A DNA stretch of 64,000 nt from a virus. A program made the position numbers and the translations under genes. Within the stretch, counting starts at the first letter, position 1. Each line of letters begins with the position of its first letter. The notes beneath the pieces are model-generated. The model made no database searches, was not told the origin of the DNA, and was given only the letters and a program-made list of their open reading frames with translations. Of the stretch, positions 31,019 through 54,551 are shown in pieces. The stretch spans positions 1 to 64,000 of IMG/VR virus record IMGVR_UViG_3300008108_000034, one strand, 5' to 3'.

Positions 31019-31141
31019 TTATTTGAGAATCAACCACAAAACCAATGCTCCAATGGTCCAAATACACCAGTTGGGTACGCTTGGCAAATATGCATCGATT
31101 GATTCGTTGATTCCTGCGATAATGTCTTTGATGGTTTTCAT
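31019..31141 (-). CDS. Small membrane peptide (40 aa)
   Basis: MKTIKDIIAG...WCIWTIGALVLWLILK with a C-terminal TM. Confidence 0.5.
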   Translation of the reverse strand: MKTIKDIIAGINESIDAYLPSVPNWCIWTIGALVLWLILK

Positions 31142-31160: not shown

Positions 31161-34100
31161 TTAATATTTCTGTTTTGCCTGTTCCTTAGCTCTAAAGTAA
31201 GGATCATACATGTCTATTATGTTTGAGAAACCAGTGATGTCCTGGAAATTCTTTATCACTTTGGCATCACCCTTTTGCTGGTGACCTGCATTACGCTGGT
31301 AAAATCCGTTTTCATAAGCACCTTCGTCACCTGTAAGGTTGTAGTTTATATACCATAATCCATTTGTCATGAGGGAACCCATGGTTTTGACCTCTTTGAA
31401 TGCTGTTGTAAACTGTCCAAACTGATCTATGTAATCCAGAGGTTTACCTACGATTGGAACAGGAACCATTGAACGTGTTTCGTTTGTGGTCTTTATCAAC
31501 GCTCGGTATAACTGAAGTTCACCCCATGAAAGATCATCACGGTCTTCATCATAAATCATGGCTCGCAACATCATGTACAAATGATATCCAAGATATGCCA
31601 GTAAGACTTCTCTTGCTGTCTGTGCAGCTTTCGCACGATATGGATCGGATGTCTCAATACCTGTGTTTATTGATTTCTTCAACTTGTCAGATCCAAGTGC
31701 CGACAGTCCTGGAAAAGAAAGGATTCCATCCAGTAAAAAGGTCTTTGCACCCTTCTTGAATCCATGATACTGGAAGAATCTCCATGTACCTACCCACCAT
31801 CCCATGTAAGCTTCTTCGGTACTCCATCCATAAGAGGATCCTACACCCTTATAGGTGTCTGAGAATGCTCCTTGGAAACGTGCGGATATTGCTGGAATAA
31901 GGTATTTACGGTAATACTCAAACAGCGATCCCCAGATGGTGCTTCCGAACTTACTCTTGGTAGCTTGGGAATAGTTACCTTGGAATCTGTAGATCTCAGT
32001 AAGTATCAAAACCTTGAGGTCCTCAACCTCGCGTTCGGAAAGATTCACGTCTTCCCTGATGTGTATGGAATTGTTCTTGAGTTTGAAGGCTTCCATTCCA
32101 TTGACCATCACGGTTGATCCGTCAGCGTTCTTCTTCAGCTTTTTGGTTCCGTTTTCCATGATGACATTTCCATCAGGATCTGTCTCAAACACTTCATACC
32201 TGCGATTCACAAGTATCATGAGCGCAGTAGTCACACCTATTTCCACCTCACCTTTGTCCTGGATTATCATCGCAAGGTCACCCACATTAAACACCCTGTT
32301 TGCCAACCTGCGTGCTTTACCTGCGGTATTGGCATCCATCACCCTGTCAAGATTCTTGGCAAGCGGATTCAGAAAACGAATAAGTTTTGTCTCAAAACTT
32401 GCATCTGATATCTTTCCCCAATCAGCAAGCATTGCAGGAAAGAACTTACCATACAGGAGTTTCTTAGCTGTGAAATAATCAGCTTCAGTGGCATGTCTGC
32501 TTGCGGATGTCGATAGGAAACCCTGGATGTTACCAGATAGAAGGTTACCTACCTGCATACTTGCGTCAAATGCCATACGACCCCATGCTCCAATCTGCAT
32601 GAGAATCCTCATGTTCTTACGGTTCAGTACGGTTTTGCTCTCGTCAGTGCTCTTTTCATATATCTGACCGAATACGAACTTGTCGCGATTGAATTTGATC
32701 TGTTCAATTATGGTCCGCAATTTGTTTGCGTTATTCAGCGACTCCGTTGTCCCTTTATCGACAAGCTCCTTGTATCGACCTTCCAGGTAATTCAAACTGC
32801 TTGACATGTATATGTCTAGGAAAGTCAATTGCTTGTTCAGGTAAAATCCAGCATTCCAATTCACAATCGCTTCGATTCCATTGGTGGTGGTAAGTTCAGC
32901 AGCCATGGGATAGTTCTCCTTGAAGAGAATCTTCATGTTTCCAGCCATACCGGATTCGTTTGTCGCCTTTTCAAACTCACTACCTGCGTAGTGAACCTCC
33001 TGCGCTTTTTCCTGTATCTCTCTTGCGACACCTGTCATTCCTTTGGTGACCAGGTTGTCAAATCCGAGTTGTTGTACGTTGGGGAAACGGAATCCCAGCG
33101 GTGTTCCTGAAGCCTCCCGTTGTTTCAAAAGGAAATTCTCCACAATCCATTTTGAATAAAACTCCTTCGTCTTGGGATTAGCCAGGATCTGCATGAATTT
33201 CGGATTCACATATTCACCTTTTGGATTTGTGATATCGAACATGTTGGTATCCTTGTTGAACCTTATGCCTTTAGGCATAGGATAAAAACCCCTACCGTAT
33301 TTATTCTTCACAAATGAATCCTGGTAATCGGGATTGTACGCGGCGTCTTTGAGGATCTTGATCTTGTATTTCTTGTTTGGAACCATCTCCATCATGTTCG
33401 GATCAGATGGCATGTATGTGTAAAGATGCGATCTCCACTTTTCATTCAACGCTCCGCCTTTGGCAAGAGTGTCTTTTCCCACCACGTATTTGGTGTTGCT
33501 ATGCTTGTTGAAGAAAGTTGCAAACTCCTTCTCATGATTCATGTATTGTTTCTCAGCATCCGCTATCTGGTCAAGAAGTGTACGGTCAACCGTTGCAAGA
33601 TTGTCCCTTTTACGATTCAGTTCCTGCAGATAGTTGTACGACTTGATGACACGGTCACGGTGGTTGTTGAAATCCCTTGCGAAATCAGTGCGTAAAACCT
33701 TGGTACGCATGCTTGCAAGTTCTGAGAAAAGGTCATTGAGTTCCATTTTCTCATCATCAGTGAGCATGTCATCAGGTTCCATCCTGAGTTCCTCTTTTCT
33801 CAACTCAAGTTCATCCTCCAATGATTCGTATTCAGCTATCTCCTGCTCATTGAGAAACTTGTAATTGAATTTGCCTCTCACATAAGCTTTGGATCTCAGT
33901 TTATTCATACGTTCGCGTATGTCCTGCATCACAGGATCCTGTGACTTCAGTTCAGCGATTCTTTCAAATATCTCATTTACACGGTCAGTGTACTCTGCGG
34001 TGGGAGTCATGTCCGTATTGTTCATATCAAAACGTTCAAGAAGTTTTGCGTCTCCCTGGTTTCTTATGGCTGTACGTTTCTTCTCCCAAAGGTTATAGTT

Positions 34101-37100: not shown

Positions 37101-37976
37101 TGCAATGAACTCACTCTGTATTACAACGGTTGGATCGGAGATTCTCTTGTTGTTGCCATATGCGGTCTGAAGGTTCTTGAGCATCGCCTCGAAACGAGGA
37201 TCGTCCTTCAACATGTTGAAAAGACCCATGAACAGGGGTTTACGGTCCGTTCTGAGCATTTCAACAAACACGTGCATCACCTCTTCGATGGCATCCTCTG
37301 GTATGACACGACCTTCCACAAGATATATCTTGTTGTTTCGTACAAACGAACGGATGTTGTCCACATTCTCGTAATGCTCATCCTGTTTCAACTTGCCAGG
37401 TTTGACCCACTCATATGTCAAACCTTTGAACTTGGCAACTAGATTGTCCATTATGGGATTGACAATCCGTTTCTGCGCTTCAATCTCTTCCTTGGTGTAT
37501 CTTCTGAGACCTATCTCCTTGACAGCAGGAACGTATTTTATCTTGACTTTTCCCTGCATTGAATAGTTTCTTTCAAACTCAATCCGCATGTCGGGAAACT
37601 TCTTGCGTAATGCAGCTGCGAAACGCTTTGCCTTCTCCTCATTATGCCACGGTTCCTCTCCAGGTTGAAATTCATACCAATGGGAGAAATCATTGCGCAG
37701 TATCTTGGTCATGGCAGACCTTGTGTAGAAAACAGTGTCGATTGTGGGTTCACCGTTCTCATCCAATGGAATATGCGTTGTCCCGTTCTGCCAGTCTCCG
37801 TAACGTTGCTTGAACTTGTTGGTATAAGCTATTGACCATACCTGCAATGCTTTCCTGGGTTCTTGCGGAAACTCATTCAATGCCGCCTGATACAACTTGG
37901 AAGGTTGTCCATTGGGAGCATAGACATTTACAATTTCATCTGTCTGGGGATTCCTATCGAATGCACAAGATCTCAT
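31161..37976 (-). CDS. Giant virion ejection/polyvalent protein with a degenerate zincin and a PD-(D/E)XK nuclease domain
   Basis: APNGQPSKLY...YGDW..LDENGEP N-motif; EEVMH zincin-like site; E...GRLDL...IDLKT...YHMQLAVY nuclease; long coiled coils; adjacent to vRNAP. Confidence 0.8.
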   Translation of the reverse strand: MRSCAFDRNPQTDEIVNVYAPNGQPSKLYQAALNEFPQEPRKALQVWSIAYTNKFKQRYGDWQNGTTHIPLDENGEPTIDTVFYTRSAMTKILRNDFSHWYEFQPGEEPWHNEEKAKRFAAALRKKFPDMRIEFERNYSMQGKVKIKYVPAVKEIGLRRYTKEEIEAQKRIVNPIMDNLVAKFKGLTYEWVKPGKLKQDEHYENVDNIRSFVRNNKIYLVEGRVIPEDAIEEVMHVFVEMLRTDRKPLFMGLFNMLKDDPRFEAMLKNLQTAYGNNKRISDPTVVIQSEFIAKNLAIAMKNELSIAPEGRRSPLANLIQRFFDWLSKLLNMEKVDGKTTLATIAQTINIKGAYFDTPEVDPYLYYSATPDVEGANFNPEDREETQKLDPVNKKKTARELNIEKAEKEIEKIANMRKKLLSTTAFRKTAAQLEVIKKLEQNVKDKLEWLKGGGQTIGVTKYIGSEDTEMLDSFVAELGANFGNFYHYLLEELQEEYINTGKAPIIIMSDPAFFDNFFKKNERLIKFSDFDKDTLRNAALELAGQMSSILSDGKIILPEISIAVQDLNGNMVLGRLDLMAVDKNGNIEVIDLKTKSANKYPIGSFPMMAFTTKNFVKTFFKDGANYLFSQIKDRSALDKYHMQLAVYSEMLRKLNINVNGRTVWALAYKYDKNAEDPKDNKMIGYKIATFRDYDFFGQVDPADQPAMSNGIEMAARQSFRELDQMTDNTTLPGEGKMNPFASIDPSIQDMMLERFDELAKNQFEVIASDVRRISEDKKIPQEEREEKINMLKRRQQSLVSLRESIKKDFSSESSEAIRTAKALLIKTAFDVFTNEIEMIVERVKAIDVPKTFELGTPENQVALGLLQYYNRSLGGMSESIQMFGNTIQQMEDLDPQTKREISQMLHDMREGIAEVENKNGRVGRRVIIAIMKATVGTQSLKVFGEMSKLLEVELQYLEKQIQKMESGQLNPESMTYNALRRLKNLLGSDKPLNTTKLEDFKKRAEEIRQMIAIKQFDDKTIDMYLDGILNSGEHVFYMGSTVQGANGLITMDSIIGDNANSEAIVAAMWKYMYNITERSRVEMLRWAESLGIDKLKQDIIDSLGGITEANKFFSEEIEVDVYDENGNVTGTETVRVYADPAHSKFYKEHDNFTIALRTLNKKIDEINRKLNQGVEEAEAQTLRQERDKLNEQQRATYTAFTEWKIEKTNTILKPEVMRLQLQSGSQIAEISAIRDKISSIVKSVGSDAYLDDMQQEIIDDLESQMSRILQEIRDKDPQAMERYKELDEYYTFRLNYNLWEKKRTAIRNQGDAKLLERFDMNNTDMTPTAEYTDRVNEIFERIAELKSQDPVMQDIRERMNKLRSKAYVRGKFNYKFLNEQEIAEYESLEDELELRKEELRMEPDDMLTDDEKMELNDLFSELASMRTKVLRTDFARDFNNHRDRVIKSYNYLQELNRKRDNLATVDRTLLDQIADAEKQYMNHEKEFATFFNKHSNTKYVVGKDTLAKGGALNEKWRSHLYTYMPSDPNMMEMVPNKKYKIKILKDAAYNPDYQDSFVKNKYGRGFYPMPKGIRFNKDTNMFDITNPKGEYVNPKFMQILANPKTKEFYSKWIVENFLLKQREASGTPLGFRFPNVQQLGFDNLVTKGMTGVAREIQEKAQEVHYAGSEFEKATNESGMAGNMKILFKENYPMAAELTTTNGIEAIVNWNAGFYLNKQLTFLDIYMSSSLNYLEGRYKELVDKGTTESLNNANKLRTIIEQIKFNRDKFVFGQIYEKSTDESKTVLNRKNMRILMQIGAWGRMAFDASMQVGNLLSGNIQGFLSTSASRHATEADYFTAKKLLYGKFFPAMLADWGKISDASFETKLIRFLNPLAKNLDRVMDANTAGKARRLANRVFNVGDLAMIIQDKGEVEIGVTTALMILVNRRYEVFETDPDGNVIMENGTKKLKKNADGSTVMVNGMEAFKLKNNSIHIREDVNLSEREVEDLKVLILTEIYRFQGNYSQATKSKFGSTIWGSLFEYYRKYLIPAISARFQGAFSDTYKGVGSSYGWSTEEAYMGWWVGTWRFFQYHGFKKGAKTFLLDGILSFPGLSALGSDKLKKSINTGIETSDPYRAKAAQTAREVLLAYLGYHLYMMLRAMIYDEDRDDLSWGELQLYRALIKTTNETRSMVPVPIVGKPLDYIDQFGQFTTAFKEVKTMGSLMTNGLWYINYNLTGDEGAYENGFYQRNAGHQQKGDAKVIKNFQDITGFSNIIDMYDPYFRAKEQAKQKY

Positions 37977-37997
37977 TTACTTAACTGTTTTTTATTG

Positions 37998-40900
37998 TCA
38001 ACCACTAACACACCTGTTGTCTTCTTCATCTATCTGTCTGTTCATGTCCTCTATGGTAATATCATCATCCCTTTGAGTAAGCGGATCGGCAGGGATGTCG
38101 TTATTCTGTAGGTCATACACAAATATAGATTCTTTTCCTTTTACAAACCCTTCGAACTTAGGACTTTCAATCATCATCTGCCAATCCGCAAAACCGAAGA
38201 TATCAGCAAAGGAATCCAGACGTTCTTTGGGTATCTCATTTGCAATGTTCTTTGCATCAGGGAATTGCAGAAGTCTTCCATCGACAAACTGATACTTGTT
38301 CAGTCTGCTGTTGGTTTGCACCTTGCTGCCATCCATCCTGGTAAAGACTTTGTTCTTGTGATTTCCAGTAGGAACCGAGGAGACGCTGATCATATACATC
38401 TTGTTCTTCATCACACTTGCATTCCTGGGAAGATCTACCGATTTCATGATGGTTGTGGATTGCGCTCTTCCTTCAAGCATATTGGTGATTTGAGCACCTT
38501 CCTTCATGCTGAATGCCAAAGGTGATACGTGTTTGGAACCTTGTTTCACCACGACTTCATATTCAGCGGACATGCCTATCAAGTCAAGTGTGGGATCAAT
38601 CTCACTGTTTTCATTCTGTGCAAGCGTGCTTATGAAAGCTTCACCCAGGCTTTTTCCATCAATGGTCTTAAGGACCATCATCTGGTTGTACATGTTCACC
38701 CTATACAACGGGAATTTGTAACCTTCATTTGCTCTCAATATTCCTGACTCATACAACATTGTGTTGTAGAAGTTTTGTTTTTGAGAGTCCTTCTCAAGTT
38801 CAGGGATGCTTATGGTTAGTTTTCCTTCCTCATTGGGAGTGAACAGATCAAACTTGTCGCTTTTGACATTCACAGACGGTGCCCCAGGTATTGCAGGTCT
38901 TGAGATACCTTTAACACCTTCTTTGCTTTCAGAATACTTGACAATCAATCTGCTGTTGTCACCTGTCACTGTTTCAAAAAACTCAAGCATGGTTCTTCCC
39001 AGAAGTTTATCTTCCTGTTTTGAGAAATACTTTTTGTTTATCTTCTCCTGGTCTATTGTATTGACCATGGTGTTTTCCTCCATATCGTTCATCATCCTGT
39101 AACTTATGATCTTGGATATTGCTTCAGTGATGACGTCTCCAAGGTTCATGTTCCCAAAGTTGGAGGAGACTATCTTATTGAGTCTTTCCGCATATATCTC
39201 CTTGGCGCTGTCCGACATCTTGAAAACACCTGTACCTATAAGCTCTACAGTGTATTTACTTGGATTCTTTTTTGCCAACTTCAACATGTCATCATCAAGT
39301 TTTACAAGATCCTCTTGAAGATTCCATATAGCTTGAGCCATCGGTTGTGAGAGTTTTGCGGGGAGTATCTCGTAGAAACCACCTTCGGCGGATTGCGCAC
39401 CTGCTTTTATCATTCCATAGTAAGCGATCCTGTGCGCCTTTTCCTTGGTTACAGAATCACCTGTCATCAGATGCAAAAGATCCGCATAGGCTGCTTCACG
39501 TCCACTCGCACCAAGTCGAGAAGTAGCCATTTCAAGAACCCTGATGTTTTTGGTCCTACCTATCGATACCACCTTGATGGCTTTGAGAAACTCATTGTTG
39601 GGATACTGTCTCAGTAGATCATGGTAGTCTGATACGATCTGACCACTTAGGAAATTCTCAGGATCCAGCATTTCCATGTAAATCTGTGGTAACACATCCT
39701 CCTTTTGTTGTTCCATTGTCGCACGCTGCAACTGCAAACCTATGAATGCGTTTATGTCCTTTCTGATCTGCTGCTTGTCATATCCGTATATGTTTTCAAA
39801 CAACAGCATCAGACCTCTCATCATACTGGTGCGCTCGATCAACACCTTGTTTGAGACCTTGTCCATGTATTCAAGCGCTCTCATGTTTGCATCCAAAACA
39901 GGATATGTTGCGAAAAGCTTGGTCATGCTTTCTTTAGTAAAGAAGTTCATCTCCCCCTTTTTCGCTTTCCTGTATGTCGTTATCAACCTATCCATCCTGT
40001 CCATGTCAGGACGCAATGCTTTCATCGGATCTGTAAGAACCGATATATTGAAACTGATCTCATTTGCCAGTTCACTGTATTTCAAGAACTCATTGATTAT
40101 CACAAGATTCTCAATTTCACGGGATACAGAAACATTATTCTTGTCTGTGATCTTGTATCCGAAATTTGATATCGGAACAGTTTTGTCAATCACATCCTGA
40201 GGATCATCCTTTGAAACATCATCATTGAAGATTATCTTATAAGAAGTCTGATCAATAACGTAATCTTTCTTTACTAAAGTTGCATCAAGTTTTGTCCTTG
40301 CTTCTGAACTGTTTTCAAGAATGGAATTCATGTACTTTTTAAGGAAAGTGTTGAAACCCATCCTGCGTCTACGGTTTGTTCTTGAATACGTACTTCCATA
40401 GGTCTGATTGTATTCATTGACAACATCAACGATTATCGGTAAGGATTGGAACAAGATAGCCGCATTTTGGGGAACACCGATGCTGAGCATTGCCGCAAGT
40501 ATGGGGGTAGTCGTACTGTTGAGATGCAATGGTCCATGGTATGGAGTCTTCGGAGCATCCGCAAACATACCTATCAGTGCACCGACAAGCTGTACAGAAT
40601 CACTTACTATTTTATTGGTATTGACCTTTTGCAGTTTTCCACCTATCTCGGTATACATCGATGGACTCATCTGCTTGTTTATCTCAGCGCCAACTGTCAC
40701 AAGCATGCTCACACCTTTGTTGAATGAAGCGGCTATACCCAATGAATCCTTTGATTCGGAGTTCAATGACCTTGCAACGGCAAGAGCGGTTGGAGTATAC
40801 ACGTTTTGTCTGTTGTATATGTCCTTCTCTGTAAGACCTCTTCTTTTAACAAGTGTTGCAATCGGTGCGACAGCCTGATCCGCTGTCATTTTCTTGTCTG

Positions 40901-43900
40901 CAAGGAACCTTTCATACACGTTGGGATTAGACAAGATATTCATCTTGGCATCCAGAACCTTGTTCAGAATGACTTCCGTAACGGGATTGGACTTGGATTC
41001 TTTTTCATATGCTTCAAGCTCATCAGGTCTTGTTGGAAGATCCGAATCCTTCATTTTCTGCAGGACATTGTAAGTCGCTATCAGTCTGCGGAAGGTATCG
41101 ATCATCTGTTCATTTTCAAAGTTCTCAGTCTCTTCCAAGACAGAAGCGTTCTTTGTAAAATAATCATTGAGTTTTCCTCCAAACAATTCACCGAAGGCAT
41201 AAGCCTGTTCCTTTCTGTATCCGGCATCATCTTTTATCTTACGGATCTCATCACTGATGATGTCCGACATGATATCGTCACGACCAAGCGAAGTAAGGTA
41301 TTCTATGAACTTTGCTTCGTTTTGACTCATTCCATACTTCTCAATGTAATGCTTGTAGTTTCCATACGCTATCCTTGTGCCGTCAACGGCATAATAGGAT
41401 GAACGTATGTACGCATACAATGTATCAATGTCAAAGTCAGAACCTGAAAGCATGTGCATTTGGGATGGAACAATGATTCCCGAACCGTATGCTTCATCCA
41501 TGTAATCGACAACCTTGGCAATGAACATGGAACGTTTGTCTTCCGTAGGGATACGTGTCGCAAAAAACTTGCTCAAGTACTCCTCTACAAACTTCTGATC
41601 AACATTCTTAAGTTCCCTTGGTATGACAACTTCGACGGTATAAAGGTCCTTCTTGACCATCTTTCCATCCTCACCCCTCACCTCAATCTCCTCTTTTTCT
41701 ATGGTCAGATATCTGGATTTAGCGTTTCGGTAATCCTGAGGATTCCTCTTATAGTCCGCACGCTTTACAACCTTGCCATTCATCTCCATCACAGGATACA
41801 TGATCGGACTGACGTGGTAGTATTTCCTACCTTCCGTCTTCTTGTCAAATACATTCTTATTGAAGATGCTGAAGTAATAGTATACAAGTATGTTCGCAAG
41901 TCTCGGCATGCTTGGAGGGAAGATCGGTTTACCGCTCTTATCCACTTCAAAGTATTGCAACAGGGTTGCATCAGCTCCTTGATCGCGAAGACCCGCTCTG
42001 ATGTTGTCATACAGTTTGCCAACTATCTTCTCATCAGACGTGTTGAACATACGCATCATGCGTTTCACTTGTGAATCAACAGCTTCCGCAAGACCTTTCT
42101 GATAAGTTTCAATATCATCCTTTATCGCCTTGTACCTCTTGTCATTAGGATCCAACTGACTTATCAAAAGCAGTTTCTGTTGGATACCTGCTGTAATCCT
42201 ATTGGATATCTTGGAGGTACCTACCTGATTATAGGTAAGTTCATTGGGTATGTTGTCAAGTGACTTTTCCAGATCCAGATAAACTCCTGGAGCGGCATCG
42301 GTTATCATGTTATAATCCAACGGAGCCACGGTCGCACGTTTACTGGAATTCGTATCGTATACCTGTTCTATCCTATGGTACTCCATTGAGTTAAGCAGGT
42401 TGTGCAGGAATCCCCCCAATGGACCTTTTGTGGATGGTACGAAATACCCGTGTATGGCCGCCATGGTTTTCTTGTACAGTTCTGATATCGGAGTTGATTC
42501 GTTTGTCTCAGGATCCATCTCCATTTCATCAATCCCTGCTTCAAGCTGCATTGCATAGTAATCAGCAATATCATACAACTGTTCCAACTCCAGCATCGCT
42601 GTGTCATAATTGAGATCAGGACGCAACATGCTGACTTCCTTACGGATGAAAGTATGTTCGGATTGTTTGATGTATTGGAATGCAGCTGTTACGGATTTCA
42701 CACTGTTGAATACGATTCCGGCATCGCGCAATCTTCTGATTCCATCACGATATTGTCTTGTCGATCTTGTCTCATAACGCATCCTGCGCATGATCTGCAT
42801 GGATTCTGGATCAAGTTGACCTGCAGCTTCCGCCATACGCATTCGCCTATCGATTGTATTCAAGGACTGACCGTCAAACGCCTGAACAGCGGTGTTTCCA
42901 TCACCTTCATAAGGTGTAAGACTCAATGGTTTGGTAAGATCGTTCTTATCAATGTACATTACAAAGTCCTTCAGAACGGATGATCTATAAGTAGTCACAT
43001 CACCATACTGACTTCTGTTGGGATCATATATGTTGGAACCAGCTGCCGCACCTGACTTCTGACGTTTGTAGAAGTTTGCAAATGAGGAGATACCCACTGC
43101 AATAGGTCCATCGAATATCTGATTTACAAATATCGAATTGATCCAGTTGTTGAAGAAGAAGTTGCGTTTGAACTGTTCTGGAGAACCTGTTGTCGGAAGG
43201 TCCACATCAGTGAATACGGTTTCAAGTTGGCCTGCGTCATTTTTGATAGTTTCTTTTCCTATGCCGATTTCCTTTAGATAGGTCTCAAAACGATCGTATT
43301 GTTCTTCTGCAAATTCGGAAACCATATCCACAAGCGCAGCGGTGTTCTCAGGATCAGCGACAATGGAATCCCATGATTTATCCTGTTTCGCCATTTCCTC
43401 CAGCATTTTCCTGTTGGATATCCTGTTTGAAACGGTCTCATTTACATTGTCAGGATCCGCAGTCAAACCAAACATGTCTGCAAGGATGTTGAATGTGAAC
43501 CCTCTGTTCAGCTGACCTTTCTGATTAAACTCACTGTCATTATATCCTTCGTATCTTTTTACGGATTCATCGTTCAGTTCCCTGTGATTCTTACGCATCA
43601 GTTCATATTCCTGACGTATAACCTTCATCAGGTCAACCACATGCGATGCAAACTTTCCTACTTTGTTCTGTTTACCTGCAGCATCAAAGTACTCCTTATA
43701 GATGCCATCAACGACGATACTGGTACTTGTAGCCTCATACTGGGTAAGGATGCGTTTGAAAAGTTTTCTGGTGGTGTTTGTTCCTGGAATCGACACATCA
43801 CGCATGCTTTGGAAAAGTCCAAACATGGAGAGCATGAACGACTTTTCATCTATGCCTTTGAAACTGCTGGTGTCACCTTGTTTTTCATTTTGGAAGATGT

Positions 43901-46900
43901 TGTATTTCTGAGCGAATCCCGCAAAAGCTGAAACCTCCATGGTTTCAAGGAATGTCTTGACAACAGGATTGTTCATGTCAAGCATCGGATTGTTCATGAA
44001 ATATTCCTGGAATCCGTTGTAATACTCTGAAATAAGCGCATCAAGACCTCCTTCAATGTCCATCTTATCCGTATCAGGATCGGTCATTGATTGGAGTTTC
44101 ATGATCATCACATATGCAGGAGTCGGCTTTACATATTTGTGAACCAGGTTTCCATTGGCATCTCTGGTGACACTTCCTCCGATACGTGGATTGTATTTCA
44201 ATATAAAAGATCCGAGTGAACGAATGTATGCCTCGCGCAACCTTATGATGTCATTGTCAATCTGTATTCCACGTGCGGCATCGGTTTTTTCCTTTTCAGT
44301 CCTTGATGCCGCCTTTGTCATCACAGTTGGAATCTGTTTACTCCAGAACTCATAACTCAGGTTCTTTATTTCCTTCAACAGCGACTTGTTCATACGGAAC
44401 ATGTTGCGAAGGGTGCTGTCCGGACTGAAGTTGGAAGGATTTGAATCCGTTTTCAAATACATCTGCCAACCCAATGAAATCATGATTGCACTATACGGTA
44501 TGTTCAGATTGAATTTGGATATGGCAACATAGACGTCATCTATGAAGCTTTGGAATGCCGCATCATTGAACATCTCCTTCTGACTACCTGTGAAGAAAGC
44601 GTCCTTCAATGAAGCCGATGACTTGAATATGGTGGCTATCGACTTAAGCATGTTTATGCTCTCGATGATTTCCTCCTTGTCCAACGCCATTGTATTGATT
44701 CGTTCAGTGATTTCAGTACGGATGCGGTTTATGTCCGCTCCCACTACGATATCATCAACCCTGTATGTCTGCTCTTTCGCTTGCAGCTTTTCACCTTTTT
44801 CGGCTCCAAGTCTTGTTTCCGTCTTAACCTGCAACAAGTGTGCGTCAACGGTATTGAACACATCCTGGAACATGACCATGACATGTTTGTTTCTTACCGC
44901 AGCACCTGCTTCGGTTATGCCAGTGGTTGAAGCAAGGGTATTGTAGACACCCATCAAAGAGTCTCTCAATTCCAATGTCTGCGCAATATCATCAGGCATG
45001 TAGAAACCGTAATCCATCCTTGAAACAAGGACATTGTTGTAATGCGTGAGTATTGAATTGAGACGTGATATCTCCGTAAGTATGGCGGGAACGATTTCAG
45101 ACTTTGAAAGATTTGTTGTTATCTTCCTGATTGTGCTGAATATGAGTTTGCTGTCCACCATCTTGGTCCTTTTGACACCAAGTTGCGGATCAGTGTATTC
45201 ATAAGGAATGTATTTGAACAGCTTTCTGAAATATGAACTTCCTTCATATGGAGCCTTGTTTGCAAAACCGAGGTTGGCAAACTGTTGTCCTGACTCTTGT
45301 TCTTCATCTTCAACCTGGAAGTCCTGTTCCAAATCCTGAGTGTCATCGAAAGTGGATTCGTTATACACTTCCCTGAACTCGTCAAGCACATGGTTTTTGA
45401 ACTTCTGTGCGTTCTTTTGACTTATTTGTGTCTGGATCTTGCTGTTTATCACCAGACTGTCATTCGTTGAATCGTTGGTGTAATTCCTCCATGTGAAAGA
45501 CTCTGTGTTGCCGTCCTCTCCAGGAATGTGCATTGTTCCAAGCAACCAGCGGGCGTTTTCATAATGTGATCCATAACGCTCGATTATGCTTTGCTCCTGA
45601 TCAGGAAACTGTCTGATTAGATTCTCGATTTTGTAATCCTGCAACACACGCAATCTGGCAAGGTTGAACAACTGATTCATCTTCAGATCAGGATCGCTGT
45701 TCTCAACACGTATCTGCGCCATCGCATAGACCATCTTGTCACGGAGTTCCGAAGTGACATATGACGGTATTATCTGATTTCCGAACTTAGGCTGGTTTCC
45801 ATTGCCGAACGTTATGAATGGAATACTCTTGTAATCCATGCTGTAAACGGAATCGGTATCCTTTGTCGCATCCCTTAATGCGGTATTCCTGTATTTGCCA
45901 AGTGTGATGTCATAATAAAGGTTCTGTATGCGACCTTCCTTCTTGAACATGTTGATCATCTTCTTCAACCATGTGAAGAGTTTTTCCATCCATGTCTTGG
46001 GGACTTTGTTGGTCTCCATGAAGGATGCGAAACCGTCAGCGAGATACTCCTCGTATATCAGGTTCTTGATTTGCTCGTCTGTAAGGTGTCCATAGCTGCG
46101 ACGCTCCCTGAACTCGCTTGCATAAACCTTTTCACTACCTACCTGTATGTATTTACCCTTGCTATCTGTCTTGTAATCACCGAGAAGCTTACCCACTTCC
46201 TTCAGGTAGTACACCTGGTGTGCTGGACTAAGCAGTCTTCTGAATACTCCGTGGAACGCTTCATGGTATACGACACCTTTCACTCTCAAGGTTTCATTGA
46301 GGTATATGACGGTGTCTCGGTAATAACCCAGTACATGTCCATCGACATTCATTCCCTGAAGATCATCCTTCCTCACAAAGGAGAAGGCATCTGGAATAAG
46401 TGCGCTTATCACACGTATTTCCTCTGAACGGTCTTCTTCCGAAAGAGCCACAAAGCTTTCGACGTTTGTACCTAGTTTGAAGTTTGTGATATCCTCATCC
46501 TGGGATGTCTGGTCAAGATTGTTCCAATCTATCGCCGTACCTGCCGATGTCTTTTCATTGGATACGGTGGGATCGACAGAAGGAGTGGAATGATCCACGT
46601 CAACAACCTCAGCTGAGACATCATAATCCTTTCCCTTGGCGGGAGCAGCAGGTGCTTTTCTTTTGATGACAGGAATCACTATCCGCTTTGCAATGTCCCT
46701 TGGGGAAATCACAAGTTCATTGCGAGTTTGTATCTTCTTGGTGAAGAAGTTGTTACGGATATCCTCCTTTGCAATCCTTCTTTGAACTTTCAGTACTTTC
46801 CCATCAAACAACGCATAGTTCACAAATTCATCAGGGATGAGACCTGGAGAAACTCTTCCGTCATCACGAGCCTTTTGATAGTTGTTTATGATGTCATCAA

Positions 46901-49580
46901 ACCTTTTACGAATCGAATCTATAAAATTACTGTACTTGTCCCCAAGGGAACCTACCAAAGGATTGCTGAATCCAGCAAGTGATCCTGCTTCAGAAGCTAT
47001 TTGTCCTACACGCTCCATTGTCATGTCTGGAGTTATCTTGTCAAGACCGTAACCTGATACAATCTGGTTTGTCAATTCAAACATCTGATCGAGCTGCTCC
47101 GATTTGAAGACAATGTTCATGTTAGCCTTGGCGTAGGTGTTGAACCTTTCCACCACATCAGCAGGACGTCCTTCACCTTCAAGCATGACAAAACGGATTC
47201 CAAAGGTTTTCTTGTCACCTTGTTGTTTCAGGATGACTATCTCTGGACGAATCCCCATGTTCTTCATGACATCGAATCCCCAACCTTTGTCGTTGAAGTC
47301 GATCATCGCTCTGTTTCCTTTTTCAATGGATGCGTTGTTGAAAGCATGTTGCATGCTTGCAAAAAAGTCAACCAAGTCAGAAGGTGTATTGACATTCCTA
47401 CGGTACACCAATGGTATGACCCTTGGAATAAGTTGATCAGCCTTGCTGATGAAAGATATGTAAACCGAGTTGTTTGTGTTGAAGTTCTTCTTGACAAAAT
47501 CAATGATGTCAATGTTCAATGAATCCTTGATATAACGTTCAACAGTCATATAGGTGTTTCCATTGGCGTCAATGATCCTCTTACCAAAAGGTAATGTATT
47601 GACTATCTCCCACGTAGCTTTTGTTTTACGCATTACGATCGGAACCCTGTGTTCGGTAGCTATACCCACAGGATTTCCTTGAGCATCCACATCTTGAAGA
47701 GGTATGGCAAGACGTCCTTCATGAGCATCTATGAAATCCCCGAGGTTTTGAACCTGCTCATTGCCTTCATCCATCTTGGTTTCAACAACGGCATTGGACA
47801 AGTCATAATACCTGTAGAAGATATCCCTGATGTCAATGTTCTGGTTTCCTGTGGATGCGATTCGTTTAGCGACTTCCATTTCGAAAGCCTTGTATGTCCT
47901 GATCGCTGTACGAAGCTGATCGATCTCCTTGTCACCAACAGTATTCTCATATCGAAGAACCTGTTCTCCACCGAATGCATCCATGTAGGAATCATCCCTG
48001 TAATTGATCATGTTCTTCAGCATCTGAACATGCTCAGGATTTTCGATGTCCAGTTGTACAACCGTGTTGTTTGGATATACAAATGCAAGGTCGGTCAAAG
48101 GTGTAAGCTCAAAAGACATGTCTCCTTTGAAATTGCTGACCGATATGTTGAATCCGTACGGACGTCTTATGAAAGAAAGAACAGGATTGTTGTTGTTACC
48201 CTGTTCAAGAGCACTCATTTGTGCAGGAAGTTCTGTTGTCTCGAACATCCTGGATCCAAGAGTTGGAAACATCGCACGAATCCTGTTCAATCGATTCGCA
48301 TTCATGCGTGCCGTATCCGTAGTTGCAGTGATGCGTATGAAATTGTAGAATCTCTGGTCCACAGGCATCTGAGCGGCAATCATCTCACGTATGGTCTGCT
48401 CCGCACCTTCGATCTTCTCATTTCCCAGAATAAGTCCTGTGATAAGATTCTCCATCTTCATGCGAAGATTGAGTGTCTTCTTGTCAATATGTTCAGGATT
48501 GTCCTTCCTGTAAATAGCGGTTACTTGATCGCCAGGCAGTCTTTCAACCTCAGTACCTTCAAGAGTCCTGTATTTATTTGCAATAGTGGGATCATATATG
48601 ACTTCAATCTTGGTACCGTCAGCTCTTCTCAATACTTGAACGGAACGTCCTGAAACCATGCCGATGCCTTCCGCATTGCTGAGTCTGACATAGTCCTTTC
48701 CAAACTCACGCGTCTCGGTGATTGCAGTTATTGCAGAATCCAGAAAGTCAAGTGTCGTTGTCTTCATGCTTGACTCAGGACGTCTTCTGATCGTATCCTG
48801 CATGCTTTTAAGATAACTCAAAACGACGGATCCTTCAGCACCTGAAGCAAATGCTTCAAGTTCCGATGAGTTCTCCTCTATCATATTGACAAGAGTCATC
48901 GTTGTGGACGCAAGTGACACATCGGATACGGTTTCGAGGTCTGCTATTTCATCACTTATTATTTCATCAAGTGTGGTGGATTTTTCAGTTTTTATTTCGG
49001 ATTCAACAGGTAGATTCAATTCCTCACCACCAGTGTATTCAACCTCAGGTAGTGATACTGTTTCAGATTTTCCACCGAGGTATCCTTTCTCTTCCCACAA
49101 ACGTTCATCTCTTTCCTGCTCCCTCAAGTCATCAAGCTCACGTCTGAGCGCCTCAGCTTCAAAAGGATCAGTCAGCACTGCTTCCTTGAATGCACTGTTC
49201 TTCTCCGCAATCTGTCCAACAGTTGTCTTTGTTGAAGGAGCGGGAGTCTCAGCGCGTTTTGGAAAGAATGCCTTTATCTGTTCTACAATCGCATCATAAT
49301 CAAAATCCTTGTCGCCATTCAAAAAAGGTTTCAGGTAGTTGTTCAACTTGGCATATACTCGGCTTTTCCACTCAGGTGTCTGGAGTCTGGTGATCTGAAA
49401 TGCTGCGGTATCTACAAATCCTGCATAAAACCATACGGCATGTATCTTGGACTCAGGAGCAATTGGTTGGTTCAGGACATCCTGTATGACAGCGGAAAGG
49501 TTCTTATACTTTTCAAAGTCATGCCTGTAAGCCTGATACAATGCATCTTCTAGATTGGATGAAGGAATCTGACAGCTCAT
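37998..49580 (-). CDS. Virion-packaged two-barrel RNA polymerase (crAss-like vRNAP) fused to a zincin peptidase domain
   Basis: Catalytic GSDFDID at 41424-41438 preceded by TRIPT; KRQK and DGQS motifs; HEAFH...EEYLAD at 46251-46265; 3860 aa. Confidence 0.92.
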   Translation of the reverse strand: MSCQIPSSNLEDALYQAYRHDFEKYKNLSAVIQDVLNQPIAPESKIHAVWFYAGFVDTAAFQITRLQTPEWKSRVYAKLNNYLKPFLNGDKDFDYDAIVEQIKAFFPKRAETPAPSTKTTVGQIAEKNSAFKEAVLTDPFEAEALRRELDDLREQERDERLWEEKGYLGGKSETVSLPEVEYTGGEELNLPVESEIKTEKSTTLDEIISDEIADLETVSDVSLASTTMTLVNMIEENSSELEAFASGAEGSVVLSYLKSMQDTIRRRPESSMKTTTLDFLDSAITAITETREFGKDYVRLSNAEGIGMVSGRSVQVLRRADGTKIEVIYDPTIANKYRTLEGTEVERLPGDQVTAIYRKDNPEHIDKKTLNLRMKMENLITGLILGNEKIEGAEQTIREMIAAQMPVDQRFYNFIRITATTDTARMNANRLNRIRAMFPTLGSRMFETTELPAQMSALEQGNNNNPVLSFIRRPYGFNISVSNFKGDMSFELTPLTDLAFVYPNNTVVQLDIENPEHVQMLKNMINYRDDSYMDAFGGEQVLRYENTVGDKEIDQLRTAIRTYKAFEMEVAKRIASTGNQNIDIRDIFYRYYDLSNAVVETKMDEGNEQVQNLGDFIDAHEGRLAIPLQDVDAQGNPVGIATEHRVPIVMRKTKATWEIVNTLPFGKRIIDANGNTYMTVERYIKDSLNIDIIDFVKKNFNTNNSVYISFISKADQLIPRVIPLVYRRNVNTPSDLVDFFASMQHAFNNASIEKGNRAMIDFNDKGWGFDVMKNMGIRPEIVILKQQGDKKTFGIRFVMLEGEGRPADVVERFNTYAKANMNIVFKSEQLDQMFELTNQIVSGYGLDKITPDMTMERVGQIASEAGSLAGFSNPLVGSLGDKYSNFIDSIRKRFDDIINNYQKARDDGRVSPGLIPDEFVNYALFDGKVLKVQRRIAKEDIRNNFFTKKIQTRNELVISPRDIAKRIVIPVIKRKAPAAPAKGKDYDVSAEVVDVDHSTPSVDPTVSNEKTSAGTAIDWNNLDQTSQDEDITNFKLGTNVESFVALSEEDRSEEIRVISALIPDAFSFVRKDDLQGMNVDGHVLGYYRDTVIYLNETLRVKGVVYHEAFHGVFRRLLSPAHQVYYLKEVGKLLGDYKTDSKGKYIQVGSEKVYASEFRERRSYGHLTDEQIKNLIYEEYLADGFASFMETNKVPKTWMEKLFTWLKKMINMFKKEGRIQNLYYDITLGKYRNTALRDATKDTDSVYSMDYKSIPFITFGNGNQPKFGNQIIPSYVTSELRDKMVYAMAQIRVENSDPDLKMNQLFNLARLRVLQDYKIENLIRQFPDQEQSIIERYGSHYENARWLLGTMHIPGEDGNTESFTWRNYTNDSTNDSLVINSKIQTQISQKNAQKFKNHVLDEFREVYNESTFDDTQDLEQDFQVEDEEQESGQQFANLGFANKAPYEGSSYFRKLFKYIPYEYTDPQLGVKRTKMVDSKLIFSTIRKITTNLSKSEIVPAILTEISRLNSILTHYNNVLVSRMDYGFYMPDDIAQTLELRDSLMGVYNTLASTTGITEAGAAVRNKHVMVMFQDVFNTVDAHLLQVKTETRLGAEKGEKLQAKEQTYRVDDIVVGADINRIRTEITERINTMALDKEEIIESINMLKSIATIFKSSASLKDAFFTGSQKEMFNDAAFQSFIDDVYVAISKFNLNIPYSAIMISLGWQMYLKTDSNPSNFSPDSTLRNMFRMNKSLLKEIKNLSYEFWSKQIPTVMTKAASRTEKEKTDAARGIQIDNDIIRLREAYIRSLGSFILKYNPRIGGSVTRDANGNLVHKYVKPTPAYVMIMKLQSMTDPDTDKMDIEGGLDALISEYYNGFQEYFMNNPMLDMNNPVVKTFLETMEVSAFAGFAQKYNIFQNEKQGDTSSFKGIDEKSFMLSMFGLFQSMRDVSIPGTNTTRKLFKRILTQYEATSTSIVVDGIYKEYFDAAGKQNKVGKFASHVVDLMKVIRQEYELMRKNHRELNDESVKRYEGYNDSEFNQKGQLNRGFTFNILADMFGLTADPDNVNETVSNRISNRKMLEEMAKQDKSWDSIVADPENTAALVDMVSEFAEEQYDRFETYLKEIGIGKETIKNDAGQLETVFTDVDLPTTGSPEQFKRNFFFNNWINSIFVNQIFDGPIAVGISSFANFYKRQKSGAAAGSNIYDPNRSQYGDVTTYRSSVLKDFVMYIDKNDLTKPLSLTPYEGDGNTAVQAFDGQSLNTIDRRMRMAEAAGQLDPESMQIMRRMRYETRSTRQYRDGIRRLRDAGIVFNSVKSVTAAFQYIKQSEHTFIRKEVSMLRPDLNYDTAMLELEQLYDIADYYAMQLEAGIDEMEMDPETNESTPISELYKKTMAAIHGYFVPSTKGPLGGFLHNLLNSMEYHRIEQVYDTNSSKRATVAPLDYNMITDAAPGVYLDLEKSLDNIPNELTYNQVGTSKISNRITAGIQQKLLLISQLDPNDKRYKAIKDDIETYQKGLAEAVDSQVKRMMRMFNTSDEKIVGKLYDNIRAGLRDQGADATLLQYFEVDKSGKPIFPPSMPRLANILVYYYFSIFNKNVFDKKTEGRKYYHVSPIMYPVMEMNGKVVKRADYKRNPQDYRNAKSRYLTIEKEEIEVRGEDGKMVKKDLYTVEVVIPRELKNVDQKFVEEYLSKFFATRIPTEDKRSMFIAKVVDYMDEAYGSGIIVPSQMHMLSGSDFDIDTLYAYIRSSYYAVDGTRIAYGNYKHYIEKYGMSQNEAKFIEYLTSLGRDDIMSDIISDEIRKIKDDAGYRKEQAYAFGELFGGKLNDYFTKNASVLEETENFENEQMIDTFRRLIATYNVLQKMKDSDLPTRPDELEAYEKESKSNPVTEVILNKVLDAKMNILSNPNVYERFLADKKMTADQAVAPIATLVKRRGLTEKDIYNRQNVYTPTALAVARSLNSESKDSLGIAASFNKGVSMLVTVGAEINKQMSPSMYTEIGGKLQKVNTNKIVSDSVQLVGALIGMFADAPKTPYHGPLHLNSTTTPILAAMLSIGVPQNAAILFQSLPIIVDVVNEYNQTYGSTYSRTNRRRRMGFNTFLKKYMNSILENSSEARTKLDATLVKKDYVIDQTSYKIIFNDDVSKDDPQDVIDKTVPISNFGYKITDKNNVSVSREIENLVIINEFLKYSELANEISFNISVLTDPMKALRPDMDRMDRLITTYRKAKKGEMNFFTKESMTKLFATYPVLDANMRALEYMDKVSNKVLIERTSMMRGLMLLFENIYGYDKQQIRKDINAFIGLQLQRATMEQQKEDVLPQIYMEMLDPENFLSGQIVSDYHDLLRQYPNNEFLKAIKVVSIGRTKNIRVLEMATSRLGASGREAAYADLLHLMTGDSVTKEKAHRIAYYGMIKAGAQSAEGGFYEILPAKLSQPMAQAIWNLQEDLVKLDDDMLKLAKKNPSKYTVELIGTGVFKMSDSAKEIYAERLNKIVSSNFGNMNLGDVITEAISKIISYRMMNDMEENTMVNTIDQEKINKKYFSKQEDKLLGRTMLEFFETVTGDNSRLIVKYSESKEGVKGISRPAIPGAPSVNVKSDKFDLFTPNEEGKLTISIPELEKDSQKQNFYNTMLYESGILRANEGYKFPLYRVNMYNQMMVLKTIDGKSLGEAFISTLAQNENSEIDPTLDLIGMSAEYEVVVKQGSKHVSPLAFSMKEGAQITNMLEGRAQSTTIMKSVDLPRNASVMKNKMYMISVSSVPTGNHKNKVFTRMDGSKVQTNSRLNKYQFVDGRLLQFPDAKNIANEIPKERLDSFADIFGFADWQMMIESPKFEGFVKGKESIFVYDLQNNDIPADPLTQRDDDITIEDMNRQIDEEDNRCVSG

Positions 49581-52500
49581 TTATTCGCAGTATGTTGAAT
49601 TTGAATTAAGTGATGAGAAGGGATTCACGTTAGGATCCCTTAATAATGTTGAATCGGAATTTCTGATTGAATCCTGTATTCTGGATATCTTCCTGACTCC
49701 AATCTTGTTGATTTTCTTGGTGTCATTACGCAAGGAAACCTTTTGTACTTTATCAGCGGTGACACCTTCCCTTTGGGATCTTGCAGCCTTCTTGCGTTTT
49801 TTCTCAGCGGTCTTTTCAACCTGGTCTATTGCTTCGGCAACTGACTTTCTCTTTCTACCTTTTTTTGTTGCAGGCTCTCCTTGTACTGTTTCAGCACCTG
49901 GTTTGCGTTTTCCGGACTTATCAGCTTTAGCAGACTTTTCAGCTCGTTCCTTTTTCGTAGTATTTCTACGCGTAGCTGTTCTTTGTTTTTGTCCTCTTGT
50001 TCCATCTTTCTTATCCTGTTCAGTTAAAAGTTGGTCTATTGGATTTATATACTCCTTTGTCAGCTGGGTAAGATACCCGTTTACAATAGGATTGTTGATG
50101 TATATGCTCCAGTTTTTCTTAATACTCTTACGCAAGTCGCTTGCCCACAATGCAAGTTCAACAAGCTCATCCTGAGTCATTTGGGAACGTGTCTCTGGAT
50201 TACCAAATTTAGTTCTTAATAATGTAATATTTTCAGGAGTATTGACATTTATTATCTTGTTCAGTTTGAACTGATCAACAATCTCCCTTCTTGTACGTTG
50301 TTCTACACTTTCGGTTTCAATGATATTGTCGACAGCCGCAATCGCCTGATCAAGAATATCACTCATTTCCTGCATTTCTTCAATACTTTCAGGAATATCA
50401 GCCATTGTAAGCTGCAAATGAGAGTTCACAAGTGCGGCATACTGCTGAGCTTTTCTTTCAGATGCTGTACGGTATCCGACATATTTAGCCTCTTGTTTTG
50501 GTCCATATGTCAAATCGTATGGTTCGGCAAGCTTCAAACGCTCACGCACCATACGTGTTTTGTTTCCTTTCTTGCGTTCGTAATCCCTTACAAATCCTGT
50601 AATCTCACCTTTGTCATTATACTCAATATTCCATACTACACCGTTTATGATTATTGACTTGACACTCTTCACACCATCCTCAACATCAACTACGTAATCA
50701 ATGGTCATTTCACCGCTCTCAGTTGATTCTACGACTGGATTGGAAGTCGGAGAAATCAATTCCTTGTCTTCCTCAGGTAGTAACGGATATGCGGGACTTA
50801 TGTCAGTGTAGTCATTGAACGATGATTCCTCGTTTGAATCGGGTAACTCGGTGCGTGTTCCATCAGGATATTCCACATAGAAACCACCGTCTTCATTCAT
50901 CTGAAGGGTACCTGTGTTTCCTGCAACTACAACAGTGTTGCCGACGTGATTGGCAAGTTTCGCCTTTTCATCGTCAATCTGTTCTGTCTTTTCATCAGTC
51001 TGCTGGCTGGTAGGAGTTTCCCTTAGACTGACATCATAGTTCATTTGTTCACGAATCTTCAAGTATTCCTTGAGGATCTCCATGTTGTCAATAGGAACAA
51101 GTTCACCTGTCTGATACAGATCATACTCCGTATGGACTGTGATCTGTTTTTCAAAAGCAATTCTTGTACCATCAGGATGCAGGTAATACCTGGTGACCTT
51201 TCTTTGACTCAAGTCTGTACTTTCAAAAGGGAAGTTGTTTGCAAGATCTTCAAAATCATAGCGCATTGCCATGTATTCCTCGGCTTGCTGTAGCGTATCG
51301 GGATTATTATAAAGCTCTTCTATGTTCACAGGACTCTTGGACTGGAGTATCCTCTCTTGTTTAATCCTTTCTTCCGTCTTTTTTTTATCTTGCTCTACTT
51401 GTTCTGCAAAAATTTCCTGAAGTTTACCAAGCACCAGTTCATCCTTCTTTTTTACAACTTCGTCCATTATCTTCTGGAGCTTGCTGTAATTGTTGTATGT
51501 ACCGTAAGGAGTTTTGCTGAAGGCAAGAAGGTCGTCCATCAGTTTTTTAACCTCAGGGGTCTCTATGAAATTCTTACCGACCTCGCTGATTTTACCCATC
51601 TCCTGGTAGTCCTCATAAAGACGTCTGGCATGCGCTCCCGCGCGCGCATCCATGATGTTCTCGTAATACTTTGTGAAGTTGTCAGGATCACTCAATAGAT
51701 TGACCGCCTGTATGTATTCATTGTGATCGCGTCCAAGAGTGACATAATCATATATGTCATTCAAGGCATCCCTCACTTCTTGCTGGTTTACCGCGGTGTT
51801 TATACCGTTTTGTCGGTTCTTTATCTCAAGGTATTCCGAAAGCACGCTGGCAGCACTGTCCATTTCGGATTTCACCCTGGTTTTCTTTGGTACAGTGTAT
51901 CTGATGATTTTGGTCGCATCATTCGGATCCTCCTCTTCGACAACCTCATACATGTCCTTTTCCATGGTTTCAAGAAGCTCTTTCTCACGCTTCTTGTCTT
52001 TGATCATCTCAAGTACACGCGGACTCTTGTCAGTGCCTTCTTCCAGTGTCTTTATCTCGTTGTTCAATACAAGCATGTTATCCCGTATCTCATCAGGACT
52101 GATGATGGTGTTGAACGAGGATGAAAGACTGTTACCGATACTGGGTAATGAGCTTAACCTGCGGAGTATCTCCTCACTTCTAATGGTGGATTGCTGACCT
52201 TTTGCCTCGGCGAAAGCGACTGTTGTGATGGCATCCATCAACGCCGCTTTCCTGATGCTGTACTTCATCCTTCCCGCATCGTCACCCATGTATTGGTCCA
52301 GACTGAGCATCAAACCGTATTTTGTCTGATACTTGTCATACAGATCGCTGTATCTTTTGACATTTCCAGCAATCTCATCCATCACTTCCTTGGGTGATGA
52401 TTTCCCAAGGTCTTGCGGTGAGTAGCCAAATGCTTCCTGGAACTCCGTTGGACTGAAGTTGTCACCATAACCATTCAGGAACTCTGTCATGTAATCCATC

Positions 52501-54551: not shown

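Follow-up and report, generated by a model that had tools for sequence, protein, structure and literature searches.

The window analysed here is a 64,000-nucleotide (nt) stretch of viral DNA, positions 1-64,000 of the IMG/VR record IMGVR_UViG_3300008108_000034. It carries three consecutive giant genes on the minus strand, whose products of 1656, 3860 and 2271 amino acids (aa) are called proteins A, B and C throughout. As judged from sequence, A, B and C are the RNA polymerase cargo block of a very divergent crAss-like phage. Their homology to proteins of the phages phi14:2 and crAss001 and their depletion of cysteine (Cys) make it probable that they are packaged in the capsid and injected. The genes are transcribed in the order 944-aa protein, A, B, C (Table 1).

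Cysteine positions in the three giant proteins

A script count identified 4 Cys in the 7787 aa of A, B and C, namely residue -2 of A (negative numbers count from the C-terminus), residues 3 and -4 of B and residue 4 of C. The first-pass annotation had named these positions and described the two outer ends and the upstream 944-aa protein as Cys-free; script count and codon check reproduced this exactly. The other 26 open reading frames (ORFs) of the window contain 119 Cys in 9620 aa (1.24%), compared to 0.05% in A, B and C. At the rate of these other ORFs, 7787 aa should contain about 96 Cys, and a count of 4 or below has a Poisson probability of 5e-36. If four Cys are taken as given, one falls into each of the four 5-residue facing ends with a probability of ~4e-12. 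The outer ends, MENILGSD at the start of A and KEQAKQKY at the end of C, are without Cys.

Table 1. Genes, cysteine codons and motifs of the cargo block (window coordinates; codon coordinates verified for all Cys)
Feature	Position	Strand	Remarks
Upstream protein, 944 aa	54560-57394	minus	0 Cys (script count); part of the Cys-depleted block, outside the Cys-linked chain
Protein A, 1656 aa	49581-54551	minus	first chain link; sole Cys 1655 (TYCE-stop); N-end without Cys
A Cys1655, codon TGC	49587-49589	minus	penultimate residue
Protein B, 3860 aa	37998-49580	minus	sole Cys 3 and 3857
B Cys3, codon TGT	49572-49574	minus	MSC start
HEAFH (HExxH, zincin-like) motif, B 1106-1110	46251-46265	minus	alignment and codon check
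DFDID polymerase catalytic motif, B 2715-2719	41424-41438	minus	alignment and codon check
B Cys3857, codon TGT	38010-38012	minus	fourth-last residue (RCVSG-stop)
Protein C, 2271 aa	31161-37976	minus	last chain link; sole Cys 4 (MRSC start); C-end without Cys
C Cys4, codon TGT	37965-37967	minus	

By its sequence, B is a virion RNA polymerase of the two-barrel crAss type, whose N-terminal third contains a zincin-like motif. Using tblastn, residues ~2520-2765 of B were matched, with 24-29% identity, to the protein annotated as "RNAP catalytic subunit" in 30 crAss-like records. The DFDID motif aligns to DFDID in phi14:2 g066 and to DFDVD in crAss001 gp50 and p-crAssphage gp44. Within the zincin-like motif, H1106, E1107, F1109 and H1110 are invariant among the orthologues (alignment A1), and HEAFH also occurs in crAss001 gp47 at residue 2157. 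In profile searches, the polymerase core of B led to crAss001 gp50, phi14:2 g066 and p-crAssphage gp44 (phmmer and hidden Markov model, HMM), the zincin-bearing part of B and the core of A (A-core) to crAss001 gp47, and the core of C (C-core) to phi14:2 g065 and crAss001 gp49. The A-core and C HMM matches to cultured phages were obtained in a small search space with modest E-values; the weak matches to these phages became visible only with the HMMER option --max, as the default filters hid them. Residues 477-598 of C gave a weak Pfam match to PD-(D/E)XK nucleases (E = 8.5e-5). Residues 510-599 of C match residues 1720-1810 of crAss001 gp47, placing the module with the nuclease match in a different chain member there. 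PHROGs gave no match for A, B, C or the 944-, 1407- and 512-aa proteins of the window, Pfam none for A or B at E <= 0.01, and a megablast of the block against GenBank phages none either.

Junction cysteines and gene architecture in related phages

The terminal Cys are conserved, which the first-pass annotation had proposed as a check. All 24 database homologues of B, ranging from 53% down to 24% identity, carry a Cys within the last 5 residues, and the 11 closest (36-53% identity) all start with MSC. Most of the 24 have no further Cys in ~4000 aa. In alignment A1, M1, S2 and C3 are invariant, C3857 is nearly invariant, and the first ~100 residues of B are highly conserved. Cys1655 of A is invariant in alignment A2, which comprises 6 orthologues at 22-56% identity. 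Orthologues of C begin with MDNSKC, MLSC, MSNC, MANRKC, MINC, MSAC and similar sequences.

For a broader survey, a profile from alignment A1 was required, since a search with B alone gave no relatives. The profile scan of IMG/VR yielded 78 loci; these and the window fall into 56 clusters with less than 60% identity to each other. Single loci and lineages are cited by L numbers. Adjacent co-oriented genes were scored as pairs, a Cys being counted if it lay among the final 8 residues of the upstream protein or the initial 8 of the downstream protein. Both facing ends carried a Cys in 65 pairs and neither end in 64, while a Cys was found solely at the upstream C-end in 5 pairs and solely at the downstream N-end in 16. 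For the 56 non-redundant clusters, this co-occurrence corresponds to an odds ratio of 52 (Fisher p = 7e-21), obtained from junctions that are phylogenetically non-independent events. The discordant pairs are explained in part by a small intervening ORF (L028, L056); others involve unrelated downstream genes. N-end Cys occur at positions 3-7, and most C-end Cys at -1 to -4. Junction codons include TGT as well as TGC, neighbouring genes are spaced by -11 to 129 nt, and the reading frames vary. Among complete chains, 28 of 30 outer N-ends and all outer C-ends were without Cys.

The same polarity, proposed earlier for orthologous gene triplets, was found in both cultured reference phages. In phi14:2, g067 has its only Cys at -1, g066 at 3 and -2, and g065 at 3. 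In crAss001, Cys were located at -3 of gp47, at 5 and -9 of gp50 and at 5 of gp49; gp47 is encoded on the strand opposite to gp50 and gp49. As these partners are encoded on opposite strands, tip-Cys pairing is a feature of the proteins. The phi14:2 g067-g066-g065 and crAss001 gp47-gp50-gp49 sets share with the window the DFDxD motif, the zincin HExxH, the A-core and C-core modules and the tip-Cys rule, at only ~25% identity over short stretches. Their break points differ: the window is split before the zincin-bearing region, crAss001 and p-crAssphage ~200 aa after the zincin motif. The cargo-block proteins of phi14:2 and crAss001 have been detected in virions by mass spectrometry (crAss001: PMC10172136). 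Taken together, the comparative data support the view that the four tip Cys of the window are conserved, functional and junction-specific, each C-end being paired with the N-end of the next protein.

Two other patterns of Cys were observed around the chains. A family of small proteins (197-224 aa) is interposed between Cys-tipped members of the chain (L046:14173-14847, L011:12400-12993); its N-terminal region contains two Cys (positions 10-23), and a third is at -7 or -8 (KCW, RCW). Just downstream of the chain, a ~130-aa protein starting with MRTAA(E)(I/T)CP was found in L048, L062, L068, L072, L073 and L074, and larger downstream proteins have Cys at 5, 10 and 18; both represent N-terminal Cys motifs unrelated to the junction rule.

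The number of proteins in a chain ranges from one to four. Lineage L030 encodes a single 5642-aa protein with 0 Cys. Two-piece chains are of two kinds (~4200 plus 1700 aa and ~1750 plus 4500 aa), three-piece chains are of the window type, and four-piece chains were found in L009 (1881, 4123, 744 and 2038 aa) and L032 (1559, 2362, 170 and 2009 aa). In at least 24 lineages the A-core, detected by HMM, is fused to the polymerase protein at residues ~240-850, for example in L035 (4979 aa), L043 (5292 aa), L066 (5054 aa), L068, L073 and L074. These fusions have neither an N-end Cys nor a Cys at the boundary between A and B. P0012-P0019 were read as further A-B fusions, based on length offsets and on weak A-core matches in P0016 and P0019. 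In crAss001, gp47 combines the A-core with the HEAFH module and crosses the position of the window's A-B junction without Cys. It ends ~184 residues past HEAFH with its Cys at -3, at a place where B of the window is continuous and Cys-free. The C-family HMM matched no further than the nearest clades.

A C-terminal module, here termed KCL, followed the same pattern. In L007 and P0014-P0019 it forms one polypeptide with the polymerase protein, and it is free-standing with Cys at both tips in L009 (744 aa), L006 (665 aa), L008 (195 aa) and L004 (193 aa). It is partly homologous to the N-terminal part of the C-like proteins of L018 and L031, which have a Cys at the N-tip only. Small inserted proteins of 170-345 aa (L032, L071, L011) contain exactly two Cys, one per tip. 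Since fused lineages have no Cys at the boundary and a Cys is found on either side of each new split, the peptide bond and the facing Cys pair behave as alternatives.

Two loci showed unusual gene structures. At the position of the giant polymerase gene, L038:5000-16300 contains only short Cys-free ORFs (119-519 aa with genetic code 11), which may reflect stop-codon reassignment or a degraded gene. In L075:928-13387, ORFs of 2512 and 1653 aa overlap by 40 nt and, unlike every true junction, have no Cys at the break; this is probably a frameshift inside one gene, due to a sequencing error or programmed.

Candidate disulfide chain and alternative explanations

We consider it rather likely that the facing pairs A Cys1655-B Cys3 and B Cys3857-C Cys4 are inter-protein disulfides which chain the cargo head to tail. 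Such disulfides would form in the virion between each facing Cys pair and would stitch A, B and C into one nearly linear thread of ~7800 residues, topologically equivalent to the single fused polypeptide of other crassviruses. With the Cys at the extreme tips, side stubs would be kept to a few residues, and the joint could pass the narrow tail channel like a continuous chain; the extreme-tip position fits a thread that needs to stay nearly linear. Avoidance of Cys is typical of injected phage proteins. The first-pass annotation had proposed a disulfide chain in gene order with release upon reduction in the cytoplasm. The junction-specific pairing of C-end and N-end Cys (65 junctions, 56 lineages), its covariation with gene fission and fusion, and a structural precedent strengthen the chain. 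Release by reduction was weakened and is not obligatory, as the modules are permanently fused in many relatives (e.g., the proteins of 4979, 5292 and 5642 aa). Given the many lineages in which the modules form a single polypeptide, their separation after entry would be either non-essential or achieved by proteolysis.

The precedent is the pre-ejectosome of the cyanopodophage A4, for which cryo-electron microscopy revealed a disulfide between gp27 Cys1715 and gp26 Cys5 (PNAS 2025, PMC12002296). The C-terminal helix of gp27 inserts into gp26, and the disulfide is present inside the virion (PMC12002296). In the sequence of the Anabaena phage A-4L, Cys1715 (position -3) and Cys5 are the only Cys of the 1717-aa gp27 and the 1114-aa gp26. 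Phage A4 (Saffermanviridae) thus resembles the window in its adjacent genes for large ejection proteins with the sole Cys at the upstream C-tip and the downstream N-tip. It differs in belonging to another family, in the lack of a virion RNA polymerase and in having one junction instead of a chain of 2-4 links, and the A4 paper reports no covariation with gene fission or fusion (PMC12002296). Virions of crAss001 contain many inter-subunit disulfides in the tail and at the portal vertex, and the published atlas says nothing about the Cys of gp47, gp49 and gp50 (PMC10172136). From the A4 structure by analogy and from the disulfide-rich crAss001 virion, we infer that a disulfide is the most likely chemistry.

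The giant vRNAP (virion RNA polymerase) of the Schitoviridae is of the T7-like single-subunit type and not of the two-barrel DFDxD type. As in the window, this giant, virion-packed and injected polymerase and its neighbours are nearly Cys-free. In the ejection operon of these phages (N4 gp50-52, DEV gp71-73), Cys is suppressed, which was ascribed to passage through the oxidising periplasm (PMC11445570). The earlier statement that the N4 vRNAP is Cys-free is confirmed by the same study, which gives a Cys content of 0.00075% for N4-like ejection proteins and reports no tip Cys (PMC11445570). The link between the proteins is non-covalent in these phages. Suppression is complete there, whereas the window keeps Cys at the four facing tips. 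A preprint on the phi14:2 polymerase does not mention cysteine; it noted fused "polyprotein" forms of the polymerase block and assumed that they are cleaved (Drobysheva et al., bioRxiv 10.1101/2020.03.07.982082). The fused crassvirus proteins of 4979, 5292, 5054 and 5642 aa contain the same modules in the same order, with no Cys at the boundaries. Contrary to the assumed cleavage into components, this suggests that the split forms mimic the fused ones.

Docking at the A-B junction, suggested earlier as a check, was analysed by co-folding residues 1-420 of B with residues 1477-1656 of A using purpose-built alignments. The score of 0.45, compared to 0.00 for the best control, was graded as weak support for docking. 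Of 80 solved complexes used for calibration, 58 reached the mark, as did 2 of 110 mismatches; scores of 0.60 or lower belonged to only 7 of the 80 solved complexes and to both mismatches. The runs shared at least 41% of contacts, and the predicted local distance difference test (pLDDT) of the partner was at least 46.

We are aware that several observations weigh against a disulfide chain. Support from the co-fold is weak, the fold of the partner itself is uncertain, and the junction counts share phylogenetic history, as stated above. Oxidation would need to follow release or to occur inside the capsid, given that virions assemble in the reducing environment of the cytoplasm and that gut phages live under anaerobic conditions. 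Lineages L049 and L056 begin with an N-end Cys that lacks a partner. Unpartnered C-end Cys were found in gp47 of p-crAssphage (L080) and in the upstream protein of L018:1-1485; the tips of these virion proteins end with QSCR and LKKC, and the next protein has no N-end Cys. Internal Cys are rare in most B homologues, in line with the first-pass annotation; gut lineages depart from this and tolerate 8-26 internal Cys in the large protein. Finally, the covalent link is transferred to crassviruses from A4, and A-4L gp25-gp29 gave no phmmer match to any chain protein at E <= 0.01, which makes the relation one of analogy and not of homology.

Several other explanations of the tip Cys were considered. 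The facing Cys could jointly contribute to a metal site or make another non-covalent thiol contact, docking the C-tip onto the next N-terminal domain. The pairing rule would fit any thiol-mediated junction, and the high conservation of the N-terminal ~100 residues of B and the weak docking support from the co-fold agree with such a contact. However, each tip provides a single Cys, and neither a conserved His nor another Cys is close by, so one junction cannot make up a normal tetrahedral site. The sole solved example of the pattern, A4, is a disulfide; we regard a metal site or non-covalent contact as quite unlikely. It also seems distinctly improbable that each terminal Cys acts alone, for example as an anchor of its tip on the portal, the capsid or the tail, or as a bond between identical copies arranged head to head and tail to tail. 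The many disulfides among tail and portal-vertex proteins of crAss001 and the few upstream virion proteins with an unpartnered C-end Cys are in favour of this idea, but it leaves unexplained that the first protein nearly always lacks an N-end Cys and the last protein always lacks a C-end Cys, that facing Cys are gained and lost jointly and that a pair is present at every new split. A link serving assembly only, i.e., 1:1:1 co-packaging into the procapsid with no role in ordered threading or ejection, accounts equally well for the equivalence of fused and split forms, and the present data do not bear on ejection. The placement of the Cys 1-7 residues from the tips, as a thread in a narrow channel would need it, is not explained by assembly alone, which we think unlikely to be the whole function.

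Far less credible is an artefact or an effect at the nucleotide level, such as chance, wrong starts, relaxed selection at disordered tips, translational coupling or readthrough. In the window, the TAA stop of A (49581-49583) directly abuts the ATG of B (49578-49580) in the same frame (YCE-stop-MSC), which is in favour of such an effect. This abutment looks coincidental and not like a readthrough site, as orthologues overlap or use other frames. The comparative data already contradict an artefact: the placement probability of ~4e-12, the conservation of the Cys down to 24% identity and the invariant M1, S2 and C3 argue against it, as do frames and gaps that vary among orthologues (-11 to 129 nt) and the opposite strands of the crAss001 partners. 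Stop-codon readthrough and translational coupling were rejected on these latter grounds. A lipoprotein lipobox was discarded since there is no signal peptide and the Cys is at 3-7, CaaX prenylation since the C-tails are variable (CE, CVSG, CK, C), and a split intein or trans-splicing since only 0-8 residues lie beyond the Cys. Obligatory reductive release is contradicted by the permanently fused forms.

Crassviruses are the most abundant phages of the human gut, and tip-Cys pairing bears on how such podophages package a megadalton protein cargo and pass it through a narrow tail. A disulfide chain may hold for the Crassvirales in general, for which we see about even chances: the injected polymerase cargo would be one covalent thread of ~5400-8800 residues, in which a tip-Cys disulfide replaces the lost peptide bond at each gene cut, modules including the small inserts join through a Cys on each tip, and exit from the capsid follows the order of the chain. 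The rule of a tip Cys at each protein junction and none where the proteins are fused predicts that the polymerase and its partners travel as one covalent thread, and would explain the free fission and fusion of genes in the cargo block. It also serves as an annotation aid for finding chain members and their order, even with genes rearranged as in crAss001. A link of this kind is already known from one junction of an unrelated phage (A4, PMC12002296), and the rule would extend this single structural observation into a general principle. Compared to the literature searched, the proposed multi-link chain around a virion polymerase, covarying with gene architecture across a phage order, appears to be new; full-text searches found no publication on the terminal-Cys junction pattern in Crassvirales.

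Neighbouring genes

The 944-aa protein upstream of A showed no phmmer similarity to crAss001 gp45 or gp46. Cys-free homologues starting with MATY or MATF were found upstream of the chain in L001, L003, L005, L035 and L073. Near the cargo block of p-crAssphage, at a distance of a few kb, a thioredoxin and a truncated thioredoxin are annotated (L080:26459-27726), which may have a bearing on thiol chemistry. Upstream of the Cys-free block of the window, the Cys of the 1407-aa protein (57409-61632, minus strand) are all clustered at residues 1127, 1129, 1146 and 1156, and a protein of at least 766 aa (61699-63999, minus strand) has six Cys, all within residues 590-620. Each cluster may represent a metal or disulfide knot of a tail protein. 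Directly downstream of C, a 40-aa ORF (31019-31141, minus strand) with a hydrophobic C-terminal half is reminiscent of the tiny gp48 adjoining the cargo genes of crAss001.

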